From NCBI GenBank assembly GCA_018692915.1, contig JABHLG010000007.1:2418-66417 (forward strand): a stretch of DNA of 64,000 nucleotides. The letters run 5' to 3'. The stretch comes from Candidatus Woesearchaeota archaeon (lineage in GTDB: Archaea > Nanobdellota > Nanobdellia > UBA10117 > JABICX01). Made by a program: the position numbers. Of the stretch, positions 45,001-48,000 are shown in pieces; position 1 is the stretch's first letter; each line of letters opens with the position of its first letter.

Positions 45001-48000
45001 TTAAGCATACCTTCTATGACTCTTGCAAATCTGGCAGCTGATTGCCCCCCAGCTTTCGTATCTCCTGGAACACATGATTGGAAACTTTTGATAGGTATAA
45101 TTGCTTTCCCTTTTAGCATAGCAACGTTACCTTCTTGCCGGTCAATTACAATTAGACCATATGCTTCTTTGACTGTAATGTATTCTTTTAGTGGGTCTAG
45201 GAAAAACGCTTGGTCGCAGCGATAAATTTTAGTATTAAGTGGCGATGTTGGTTCAATTTCCCAAATTTTAATATCTGATTGGCCTTCTCTTTCAGCAATG
45301 TTTCCTGCGAAAAGCGCTAAACCGTTAGGAGGTGTTTGTTTATATTCTCCAAGAGCACGTAGCATTTTTTCTAATGCATCTGAAACATTTTTCCGAGTTG
45401 TGCTAGATTTAATGTTTCGCGCAGTTCCAGCTTCTCCAGATAGTTGCTGTTTGATTTTATCTACACTATAACCTGCTGGCACATATACAGAAATAAGTTC
45501 AGTATGTCTAGCTCTGTGGCTTCCTAGCTCAGAGAGTAACTTCTTCATTTTGAACCGTTCTTTAGAGTTCATTCCCATCAGTTTTCTCCCAAAACCAAGC
45601 AAACTTTGTTTGCGTGGCCAAGAAAACGCTTTGCGTTTTCTCTGGAACCTGGTAAAGAAATGTTGTTTCTCCGAAACAACTGCTTACGCAAGTTTTATAG
45701 GTATCCTCTATAATTTAAAATACAGAATTGAGAATATAAGCTTTACTTGTTAGTTCGTTCAGTAGAGTAATATCTGATGCGCGAACCATCTTGTTTGGAC
45801 TCAATTTCATCTAATTTAAGTAAATTTTTGAGATTCTTAGATAAAGTTGTTTGAGGTATGCCTAATGTTCTTTTAATTTCATTGTAATGTATACCAGGAT
45901 TATCTGTAATAACTGTATAAATTTTCTCCCGAGGATTAATTATTTTTCTTACTATATCAGGAGGGTCGTTTTTTATGAAGTAAGTAGCAGATTGTCGAGA
46001 ACTGCTTCTACCGAGAATATTTGCTTGTAAAAGAACTTCAAGATGATATGTTGTGCGTTTATTATTAAGTTTTAATCCCTCATTTATATCTTGTTTAGTA
46101 ACGGATTTGTGTGTTCTTAGATGATTTATTATAGACATTCTCGTATCATGAGCTAAAATTCGGTTTTTATCTAATCGAGTATAAAATACATTAGATATTA
46201 TTGCTCCACATAATATTGCTGTTAGACTCATTTATTAAAAATCTGAATAATACTAATAAATGTATGGATTTTCAATCCCGCAATTGGTCTGAGACCAATG
46301 GCGTTATTCTTTGTAGTAATAAACTTAAAAATCTTGGCTTACTCTGTGATCTATTGTATTTGAACTTGTTGGGTCTATACTGGTATCTATGGAGTAATAT
46401 GCATAGTGTTTACCTATTTTCTTCATGCCAATTAATTCTTTTTGTCGTAGTTTTTTAATTGTTGAATTAACTGTTCCTTGAGAATAATCAACTAATTTTA
46501 CTAAAGATAGTCTACTAATATATGGATTAGATTTTATTTCGTTCATTAAAATTTCTTCTATAGTTGTTAATCCACTAACTTTCTGTCCTTTAGCAAAAAA
46601 TCTCACATATTTTCCATCTTTAAATGACCTAATAAGGCGATTTTTCTGAAGAATATTTAACTGATATGCTGTAACGCCGTTGTTACGATCTAATTCTTTT
46701 TTAATTTCAGTAAAAGTAATTCCACCTCTTTTTTGTATTAAGTGATACATATCGCTTCTAAGAGGTAATTCTAATATATCTTGTCTATCTATATATTGTG
46801 TCATACTGTTACTACTTTGTAAAATTGGTTTATAAGTGTTTCTAAAAAGAAAAACTATACCGCAAAGCTTTGATGTATAAGTATTTCTATTGATTAATTA
46901 TTGAACAGCGATTGTATTTACCTATTTTTGTGATATTAATAATTCCTTGCTCAGCTAGCTCTTTAATAATTTTACTAACTGCACTTTCATTATAACCAAC
47001 TATGTTTGCGATTTCTTTCTGACAACTAAAATCATTTTCTGTAATAGTTTTAATAATATTTTCTTTTTTACTAAATTTTGTTGGAATATTAAATATTCTC
47101 GGATAAAATCTGAGATATTTTCCATCTTTTTCAGATTTTATATATTTTCTTTGTTCTAGAAATGTTGTATGGTATGTTGCTGTTGTGTATGCCATTTCTA
47201 ATTCTTTTATTATACTTGTAAGCGATAATCCTGGTTTTTCATGGACAAGTGAGTTAATTTGGTTTCTATTATCATTTTCTAGAATTTTATCTCTTTTCAT
47301 GTAAGACGCCATATAACTTTTAGTAAAATTTATTTAAAAATTCTATGATTGCTTTTCTGAAAGGTATTTAGTAGCCATTACTTTTTCTTGTGATATCCAG
47401 CAAATATAATTTGCTTCCTGAAGTTCATATACTATATCATTTAGTGTTTTACTAAGTTCAATTCCAGTTCTTTTACTTAGTGCTTCGAATTCAATACCTC
47501 GCTCTCCAGCGCTTTTTATAACATCATATACATTAAAATTCTGTGGATTAGTTATTACTTTTTGTCTATGTTCTTCAGATTCTCTATCTTTTTCTGCATC
47601 ACTTTTATGACTAAAGTAATTTAGCAATCCCATCTAAAAACTAAATAACATTAAACTTAAAAATTAGTTGATTTTTCAACTATTTCTATTGATTTAAGTA
47701 ATCTTATTCTGGATAATCTTATATTTTCTTCAGAGAGCTCACCATTTAACACCGCTTCAAGATTATTCCTAATTTCTTCGTAATCATAAGCTAATTCATA
47801 TCCTCTTTCAAGACCGTGACTAAATGAATAGCACGTAAATGCTACACAAACATGTGGTTTTAGGTCTTCTAATATGCATCCTTTTGGTGTGTGATATGCA
47901 CAAGGTTTTTTATTATCAAAATAAGGTTCTTCTTGATTATTTGGTAAGCCATATTTTTCAATTCGCTTTTCCGATAATAGATTATTATGAATTTTATCAA

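Follow-up and report, generated by a model that had tools for sequence, protein, structure and literature searches.

In a 64,000-nucleotide stretch of contig JABHLG010000007.1 from a Candidatus Woesearchaeota archaeon (the window; ~32% G+C), the genes for release factor aRF1, an L40e-like ribosomal protein (a weak full-length NCBIfam L40e match) and the alpha subunit of phenylalanyl-tRNA synthetase (PheRS-alpha, gene pheS; ATG 56437, plus strand) each follow a folded leader of common design. The closest named relatives of the window's aRF1 protein are in Candidatus Woesearchaeota. All three leaders represent one small, structured RNA element that has not been described before. The family to which they belong is confined to one narrow clade of marine Woesearchaeota, where its members are dispersed and inserted at start or stop codons, and its helices P3 and P4 and a pyrimidine tract, Y1, covary. 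The interpretation we prefer, and hold with a little more belief than doubt, is that of a dispersed, strand-specific RNA element that is inserted at gene boundaries and acts as a two-state translation leader.

An initial annotation of the window had divided each leader into a GGTNACC-like box, the motif UUGCGUAAGCA, a hairpin, and the block UUYUUUACCWGGUU followed by a purine tract. All four parts lie where it had placed them, on the sense strand of each gene; as it had claimed, UUGCGUAAGCA occurs in the aRF1 and pheS leaders, a purine tract ending in CUG adjoins the start codon in all three, and the aRF1 copy contains two extra hairpins (Table 1). The 10-mer TTACCWGGTT has three exact occurrences in the 64 kb, all within these leaders; shuffled versions of the window hold 0.18 on average, and three copies were reached in 1 of 100 shuffles. 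When the window was searched with a covariance model, the three known copies were recovered (scores in Table 1) and the next match reached 17 bits; neither this model nor a hidden Markov model found a fourth copy in the window.

The partial matches proposed at valS and metK did not survive. No element was found upstream of metK (60368-61537) by covariance model search of the window, and the valS site, matched by neither model, shares only the 9-mer TTGCGTAAG. That 9-mer lies inside a different block, and the neighboring TTCTTTTAAAC, which five genomes conserve, is the promoter of valS. The block itself, GGTGAGTATCCCGTAYTKGCGTAAKNCCTTACTTA (50625-50662, minus strand), stands upstream of the valS promoter and is conserved between the window and the related contig L007.

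Rfam 15, whose families include T-box and ribosomal-protein leaders, SAM-II/V and preQ1 riboswitches, self-cleaving ribozymes, and C/D and H/ACA small RNAs, holds no family that matches the leaders, in line with the initial annotation. At the gathering threshold the whole window gave one tRNA and no leader match. A permissive search of the leaders at E<=10 returned nothing on those of aRF1 and L40e, and its output was noise (snoJ33, with 14.6 bits where 45 are required). Searches of the literature on leaderless genes in Woesearchaeota, on MITEs (miniature transposable elements with inverted repeats) in DPANN archaea and on RNA triple helices in archaea yielded no description of the element.

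When 185,579 species genomes were scanned with a sequence pattern, 87 matches came up: 86 are chance hits in bacteria and unrelated archaea, and one is a real copy in a Woesearchaeota metagenome-assembled genome. With a stricter pattern, a metagenome collection gave 16 matches, of which 12 are real, every one of them from samples Ga02334xx, the same sample set as the relative L007; the four matches of a viral scan were all due to chance. A covariance model seeded with seven copies added two diverged ones (L004b and L105b), and the family now stands at 15 distinct copies, three in the window and 12 in related contigs, mostly from Saanich-type metagenomes.

All 15 copies are in sense orientation. 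Ten genes have the element directly upstream: aRF1 (two orthologous copies), L40e, PheRS-alpha, ribosomal protein L18, aIF5B and RNase P Pop5, together with genes for a DUF192 protein, a PduO-type adenosyltransferase, a FlaI-like ATPase and a Zn-ribbon protein. Measured from the start codon, the element's 3' end falls at -1 to +2 nt in all 10 upstream copies. In four copies the 5' end is 0-1 nt past the stop codon of an SMC-like gene, an unnamed gene, L40e and aIF5B, and one of these sits between convergent genes. The association with translation genes that had been suggested for the three leaders holds: six of the ten genes with an upstream copy serve translation or RNA processing (hand-calculated binomial p ~0.003 against an assumed 17% share, on a small sample), but the other four are unrelated and four copies follow stop codons. 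The bias is real in this small sample, but insertion or survival at genes of high expression could be its source just as well.

Comparison with relatives shows how the leaders arose. Contigs encoding aRF1 proteins 70-86% identical to that of the window were used, and in four of them (L001, L006, L007 and L008) the aRF1 start codon stands 20-21 nt after a conserved TATA box, ctagcaaac-YTTATATK, without the element. The window retains this promoter, followed by the 133-nt element and then the same coding start; the junction is CTTATATTCTCAATTCTGTATTTTAAATT-element-ATGGGAATGAAC, versus CTTATATTATCAATTCTATATTTTATGTATGAGTATGAAC in L006 (86% aRF1 identity). The aRF1 element is present in the window and L004 and absent from L001, L003, L006, L007 and L008, and the related copy in L004 (71% aRF1 identity) has a completely different P3 stem. 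Both pheS (in L001 and L007) and L40e (in L001, L004, L007 and L008) look leaderless in relatives and lack the element, and the PduO-like gene has an ordinary Shine-Dalgarno (SD) sequence, GAGGTGAT, 5 bases before its start in L110 where its L109 orthologue has the element.

Since most genes of the window have YTTTTAAA 20-24 nt before ATG, leaderless starts appear to be the norm there. As relatives lack the element at the same genes, the leaders are insertions between the predicted transcription start and the start codon rather than ancestral regulatory regions, and the long form of the element would give otherwise leaderless genes a folded 5' leader. This speaks against the earlier proposal of an ancestral cis-regulatory leader defining a translation regulon: the presence at orthologous genes that would mark a conserved regulon leader was not seen, the aRF1, pheS, L40e and PduO-like orthologues of the closest relatives being leaderless-looking or SD-led.

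The element is ~55-135 nt long and exists in a short and a long form. The short form runs in the order P2, P3, Y1 (UUUCUUU), ACCAGG, Y2 (UUUCUU), a turn of 2 or 3 bases, R (AAAGAAAA) and CUG, with P2 as either a mini-hairpin of type GCGAAGC, GCGUAAGC or GCGCAGC or a hairpin of 6-8 base pairs. To this the long form adds a 5' module: first (A)GGAGGUNACC, an SD-like box of which the aRF1 and L40e copies have weaker versions, and then a purine-rich strand, R5, ending in CUG or UUG. All four copies after stop codons are of the short form, without box 1 and R5, and most upstream copies are of the long form.

Covariation was tested on 3' domains of equal length and on P3 arms excised and given an artificial GAAA loop; a full-length MAFFT alignment was structurally wrong and hence was not used. 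The compensatory changes noted earlier in the hairpin were confirmed: over five basal pairs of P3 there are ten distinct stems, 98% of cells are paired and 13 changes affect both sides, a result as high as which was seen in 0 of 500 shuffles. P4, in which CAGG-Y2 pairs with R-CUG around one conserved G.A opposition, is 97.8% paired with three compensatory pairs. Its single C-G pair shifts among three positions with both strands in step, and its base changes in the diverged copies from CAG..CUG to CAAC..GUUG (L004b) or UGAG..CUCA (L105b). G.U pairs were seen on the sense strand alone, which assigns the structure to that single strand, in the simplest case RNA. The tip of P3 in the pheS copy of the window and in L109 reads GA-GUGC-loop-GCAU-UAC-GA, that is, a C-stem, a 3-nt bulge, tandem G.A/A.G and a second stem, and L097 has the same module with a 2-nt bulge; by inspection this module fits a kink-turn (K-turn), and we term it K-turn-like.

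Several other identities were considered and rejected. An upstream open reading frame or N-terminal extension does not explain the blocks, whose frame with respect to the start codon differs among the L40e, pheS, L097 and L105 copies, with U and A runs of varying length; a leaderless upstream open reading frame ending in UGAUG is given by the pheS copy only. The likenesses to box C/D, H/ACA and hammerhead RNAs (CUGAUG, GUGAUGA) amount to CUG plus the start codon and have no Rfam support, and the flanks, being direct repeats, are by inspection unable to form the motif of a bulge-helix-bulge intron.

Covariation also extends to a third strand. When the C of Y1 shifts, so do the C of Y2 and the G of R, at the same index from the 5' end in Y1 and R, as expected of parallel strands. 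In this register Y1 and R show 100% U/A or C/G matches with three co-changing positions (3 of 500 shuffles were as high), and antiparallel Watson-Crick pairing of Y1 with R was no better than in shuffles. A length rule holds in all 14 parsed copies, two apparent exceptions being parsing errors at AG loops: Y1 has as many U's past its C as Y2 has ahead of its C, and this number is one less than that of the purines that follow the G of R. The initial annotation had suggested that the pyrimidine run pairs with the purine tract; such pairing is possible, but covariation favors a Watson-Crick role for the second tract, with the first running parallel as the third strand. The geometry of Y1, Y2 and R fits a pyrimidine-motif triple helix of U.A-U triples with one C+.G-C, in which Y1 would enter the major groove of P4, joined to the 5' strand of the helix through a two-base linker.

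A competing fold is predicted for the long form. R5 is complementary to CAGG-Y2-GG and could form a helix, P1, with 9-11 of 12 pairs in nine copies (background probability of at least 10 pairs, 0.0047), and of the nine full-length copies whose R5 is clear, seven have P1 as their minimum-energy fold. It is mutually exclusive with P4, from which it differs by ~0.2-4 kcal/mol with the triplex contribution not counted, and the P2 mini-hairpin, which shares CUG with P1, competes with it. On the model that we prefer, the native promoters would drive transcription of the element, making it a 5' leader or a trailer. A clamped hairpin would close the start region in the P4/triplex state; in the P1 state the A-rich tract and the start codon would be free, with the SD-like box within ~13-15 nt of the start. 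If this two-state model is right, the element is a portable module of translational control.

A number of points weigh against this model. Cognate and non-cognate strands of R5 and CAGG-Y2 pair equally well, so that P1 is supported by complementarity and energy and not by covariation. The ~13-15 nt, plus a helix end, between the SD-like box and AUG in the P1 state exceed the 5-8 nt of the window's ordinary SD-led genes, and two upstream copies (L103 and L098) have no SD-like box. Support for the triplex is indirect and comes from three informative sequence types among 14 related copies (five distinct rows), and the Y1 block TCTTTACC followed by 20-24 nt and the start would also fit the local promoter geometry. 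Transcription starts were placed by TATA spacing in a genome of 32% G+C, where TATA-like strings are common, and a second such string just before box 1 would put the start within the element.

The signs of dispersal are of two kinds. The same P2/P3 subtypes recur at unrelated genes in different genomes: the L40e copy of the window groups with L103, L004 with L098, and the pheS copy of the window with L109 and L097. In addition, five copies are flanked by direct target duplications, with tested lengths of 0, 6, 15, 15, 20 and 34 nt; those of 34 (34/34), 20, 15 and 15 nt were reached by 0 to 9 of 300 shuffles. At pheS the duplication is ATGAAG, and in L103 it is 15 nt of the gene start, with the upstream ATG changed to ATA. 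Three duplications, of 15, 20 and 34 nt, are the end of the upstream gene including its stop codon, repeated right after the element (L105 5230-5345; L004 12455-12555; L104 8640-8760). As a separate observation, all five differences between the repeats of L105b and L004b fall at third codon positions and preserve the peptide or stop, which would be unexpected for a dead target-site duplicate.

A fixed-stagger transposase is a poor fit because the duplication length varies, and IS200/IS605-type elements are a poor fit because duplications are present; no common 5' flanking motif of the IS200/IS605 kind was seen among the copies. Nor do the copies have the terminal inverted repeats or the fixed-length target duplication of MITEs: the termini GGAGGU.. 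and ..AAAACUG are not complementary, and R5 with CAGG-Y2, the sole long inverted repeat, lies inside the element and does not occur in the short form. Three features expected of elements that resemble short interspersed nuclear elements (SINEs) or are otherwise retroposed by target priming were seen, namely an A-rich 3' end, variable duplications and 5'-shortened copies, but the four short copies all start at P2 and form a discrete class, not random truncations. A bolder reading, to which we give little credence, is that of a mobile archaeal RNA with a MALAT1/ENE-like triple-helix 3' end (ENE, element for nuclear expression), spreading via an RNA intermediate and joining the ends of abundant mRNAs, both at the 5'-terminal AUG of messages without leaders and where coding regions end. 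If true, it would create structured leaders and trailers in a lineage otherwise without them, provide the first mRNA-associated triple helix in archaea and offer a view of the origin of 5' untranslated regions.

Alternative functions must be weighed against that of a two-state leader. A cis-regulatory leader dedicated to translation genes, which would sense one signal common to them (a protein, tRNA or metabolite) and co-regulate them in the manner of bacterial T-box and ribosomal-protein leaders, would account for the bias toward translation and RNA-processing genes, for the two of the four post-stop copies that follow L40e and aIF5B, and for the conserved single-stranded blocks and alternative folds. 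We nevertheless consider it unlikely: the same genes lack the element in the closest relatives, unrelated genes, stop codons and a convergent gene pair have it, flanking duplications are present, no Rfam family matches, and the bias has the other possible sources named above. Equally doubtful is a processing or stability element, cut after its terminal CUG so that the triplex-capped upstream RNA is shielded from 3' exonucleases in the manner of MALAT1/ENE RNAs and the leaderless mRNA starts at AUG or GUG. Cleavage of this kind would suit the placement of the 3' end at the start codon in 10 of 10 upstream copies, that of the 5' end at the stop codon in 4 of 4 downstream copies and the nearly universal leaderless starts of the organism, and the order Y1-loop-Y2-loop-R at the 3' terminus matches that of a 3'-end triple helix (review PMC13541005). 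Set against this, no nuclease or recognition feature can be named, and the SD-like box and R5, found only in upstream copies, suggest a role in downstream-gene expression and would be needless if the leader were cleaved off.

It seems still less probable that the element is a purely selfish small repeat without a host role, confined to gene boundaries because other insertions are lethal in a compact genome. The sporadic distribution among relatives, the subfamilies, flanking duplications and short forms, the very high coding density and the intergenic spacers of 30-50 nt all agree with such a repeat. What speaks against it is the sense orientation of all 15 copies, the upstream-specific SD-like module with its hint of a role in downstream-gene expression, and the fact that diverged copies within one genome keep all helices by compensatory change, which argues for long-term selection on the fold and not recent copying alone. 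The least credible alternative in our estimation is a mobile insertion acting at the DNA level with an outward promoter, whose TATA-like box would be Y1 plus A, 20-24 nt before the start, so that the gene stays leaderless and the hairpins serve transposition of single-stranded DNA. The spacing of TCTTTACC or CTTTTACC to the start is that of local promoters, these blocks resemble natural boxes such as TCTTTAAA and the valS box, and GCGAAGC-type mini-hairpins are very stable in DNA too. Yet a conserved CC instead of AA spoils the TATA box, the spacing in the aRF1 copy is ~85 nt with the native aRF1 promoter kept upstream, the diverged copies have TTTCTTTG and then their own canonical TTTTTAAA promoter, and one copy would fire into a convergent gene. 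A promoter spacer also leaves the three-way compensatory change unexplained, and K-turn modules are features of RNA.

Among known systems, the 3'-end triple helices of ENE, MALAT1 and PAN RNAs run from a Hoogsteen pyrimidine tract through a turn to a Watson-Crick pyrimidine tract and on to a purine-rich tract near the 3' boundary, and helices of this type also occur in transposable-element RNAs of plants and fungi (PMC13541005). The Woesearchaeota element resembles them in its strand order, in its predicted triples (mostly U.A-U with one C+.G-C) and in its association with dispersed elements, and its two tracts and purine tract lie in a register allowing stacked U.A-U triples. It differs in being archaeal, in having a 3' domain of ~33 nt whose purine tract is closed by three more pairs (CAG:CUG), and in usually forming a 5' leader beside a start codon. 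The stem-loop of the ENE core between the two U-rich tracts is absent, only six nucleotides (ACCAGG, GUCAAC or GUGAGA) separating Y1 from Y2, and no sequence similarity to ENE/MALAT1 RNAs and no Rfam match were found.

In telomerase RNA and in the SAM-II, SAM-V and preQ1-II riboswitches, a U-rich strand 5' of a helix runs parallel to its purine-rich 3' strand (also PMC13541005). U-rich Y1 likewise stands directly 5' of P4 and parallel to R, whereas P4 is a simple hairpin with no candidate ligand pocket, the genes are not those of SAM or preQ1 contexts and Rfam gave no match at E<=10. In the three riboswitches the triplex helix covers the ribosome-binding region. A different precedent is the split ribosome-binding site of phage T4 gene 38, in which a hairpin brings a distant SD sequence near the start; in the predicted P1 fold the SD-like box and the start codon would likewise flank the base of one long helix, but with ~60-100 nt looped out and a long remaining spacer. 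T-box and ribosomal-protein leaders offer a likeness as structured leaders with alternative pairings upstream of aminoacyl-tRNA synthetase and ribosomal-protein genes. In contrast to the T-box, the element is not conserved at orthologues, lacks specifier and T-box features, and also occurs at unrelated genes and after stop codons. The P3 tip of three copies, a minority, is similar by inspection to archaeal K-turn/L7Ae sites.

Bacterial dispersed repeats such as REP/BIME, ERIC, the Correia repeats of Neisseria and pneumococcal BOX/RUP are short, multi-copy intergenic hairpins that vary at orthologous sites, are co-transcribed with genes and can alter mRNA stability or expression. The present element is likewise short, multi-copy, intergenic, hairpin-forming and present or absent at orthologous sites. 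It differs in having no terminal inverted repeats or fixed-length duplication, in being strictly sense and nucleotide-exact at start and stop codons, and in a conserved, non-palindromic core whose copies have diverged with compensatory changes rather than being near-identical.

DPANN archaea are known almost solely from genomes, and to our knowledge no family of cis-acting RNAs is on record from them. In the present element one sees, at single-nucleotide resolution, how a structured 5' leader is gained by leaderless genes in one step. Its 33-nt 3' domain is a compact candidate for a natural triple helix in archaeal mRNA, an idea that the three-strand covariation makes testable, and the bias toward translation genes, together with the exact placement at start and stop codons, raises the question of the insertion route.

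Table 1. Parts of the three element copies in the window (CM, covariance model score)
Feature	Position	Strand	Remarks
aRF1 copy, long form, ~133 nt	45579..45711	-	Predicted transcription start to base before ATG (45576-45578); CM 47.5 bits over 45579-45680
Native aRF1 TATA box CTTATATT	45733..45740	-	+21 nt gives predicted start ~45711, the element 5' end
aRF1 box 1 AGAGGAUACC	45700..45709	-	Weak version of SD-like GGAGGUNACC
aRF1 R5 strand	45689..45699	-	AACUUG could pair with CAGGUU (P1)
aRF1 P2 mini-hairpin UUGC-GUAA-GCAG	45680..45691	-	Equivalents GCGAAGC, GCGCAGC, GCAAAGC in other copies
aRF1 P3 hairpin GUUGUUUC-GGA-GAAACAAC	45662..45680	-	Covariation
aRF1 Y1 tract UUUCUUU + ACCAGG	45648..45660	-	
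aRF1 two extra hairpins in 3' domain	45599..45643	-	45620-45643 and 45599-45613; unique to this copy
aRF1 distal 3' hairpin GGUUUU-GGGAG-AAAACU(G)	45579..45596	-	Abuts ATG 45576-45578
L40e copy, long form, 91 nt	43210..43300	-	CM 78 bits; ATG 43207-43209
L40e TATA box CTTATAAA	43322..43329	-	+21 nt gives predicted start ~43300; L007 has CTTATAAA + 21 nt + ATG
L40e box 1 AAGGUUACC + R5 CCAGAAAUCUG	43281..43298	-	P1 is the minimum-energy fold
L40e P2 long hairpin UUUUCGCC-CUU-GGCGAAAA	43262..43280	-	Covaries with UUCAGC/GCUGAA (L103), UUCGCC/GGCGAA (L110)
L40e P3 hairpin AUUGCUUC-GGA-GAAGCAAU	43243..43261	-	Covariation
L40e Y1 tract UUCUUUU, candidate third strand	43235..43241	-	Parallel-register covariation
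L40e P4 CAGG-UUUUCU / GG / AAGAAAAA-CUG	43210..43232	-	Ends beside ATG 43207-43209
pheS copy, long form, 99 nt	56336..56434	+	CM 65 bits
First ATGAAG, kept at old leaderless pheS start	56330..56335	+	Repeated at 56437-56442; 6-nt repeat alone not significant
pheS box 1 GGAGGUAACC + R5 CCAUAGGAUUUG	56339..56358	+	
pheS P2 mini-hairpin UUGC-GUAA-GCAA	56356..56367	+	
pheS P3 + K-turn-like insert AUCGUUC-U-GA-GUGC-GUUA-GCAU-UAC-GA-A-GAACGAU	56367..56401	+	Same module in L109, L097; K-turn by inspection
pheS Y1 tract UUUUCUU	56403..56409	+	
pheS P4 CUGG-UUCUUU / GG / AAAAGAAA-CUG	56412..56434	+	Start is GUG 56434 or AUG 56437

Two further sites have the 3' domain alone or a likeness of it. Its 3' domain alone occurs at L088 2074-2124 (the same sequence is found in L096 and L107), inside the 5' end of a 59-aa Zn-ribbon open reading frame; this frame overlaps the upstream gene's stop, and translation of the domain in it would give SFFTRFLFKRKL. 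A sequence resembling that domain at L100 1685-1723, on the antisense strand of a tRNA-gene intron in a groundwater contig (21.9 bits), is probably due to chance because it breaks the P4 register rule.

Further signals precede start codons. The apparently leaderless genes valS and pheS have GGAGGT or GGGGGGT between TATA box and start codon, 11-13 nt ahead of the ATG (window 56301-56336 and 50580-50615; L007 1808-1845); this may be a promoter-proximal element or else an SD sequence that serves read-through transcripts. Another shared leader, ~75 nt long and unrelated to the element, TTTGCGGA..GAAGGTTATATCA..GCGACTCCGTGCGTTAnAGAGGCAAAAGAAA|ATG, is found on the minus strand of the window at 2460-2535, 14875-14950 and 37475-37550, before a DUF1858 gene, a carbamoyltransferase gene and an HMA/DsbD gene; it ends in an SD sequence and an A-rich spacer and has no Rfam match.

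The tRNA matched by Rfam in the window (38 bits; 53029-53200, minus strand) spans 172 nt, implying an intron of ~100 nt, and ARAGORN reported no tRNA in the window. In L001, an intron-bearing tRNA gene (2950-3105, minus strand) lies directly upstream of the leaderless pheS, and its intron is rich in complementary CUUUCUCUUU/AAAGAGAAA tracts.

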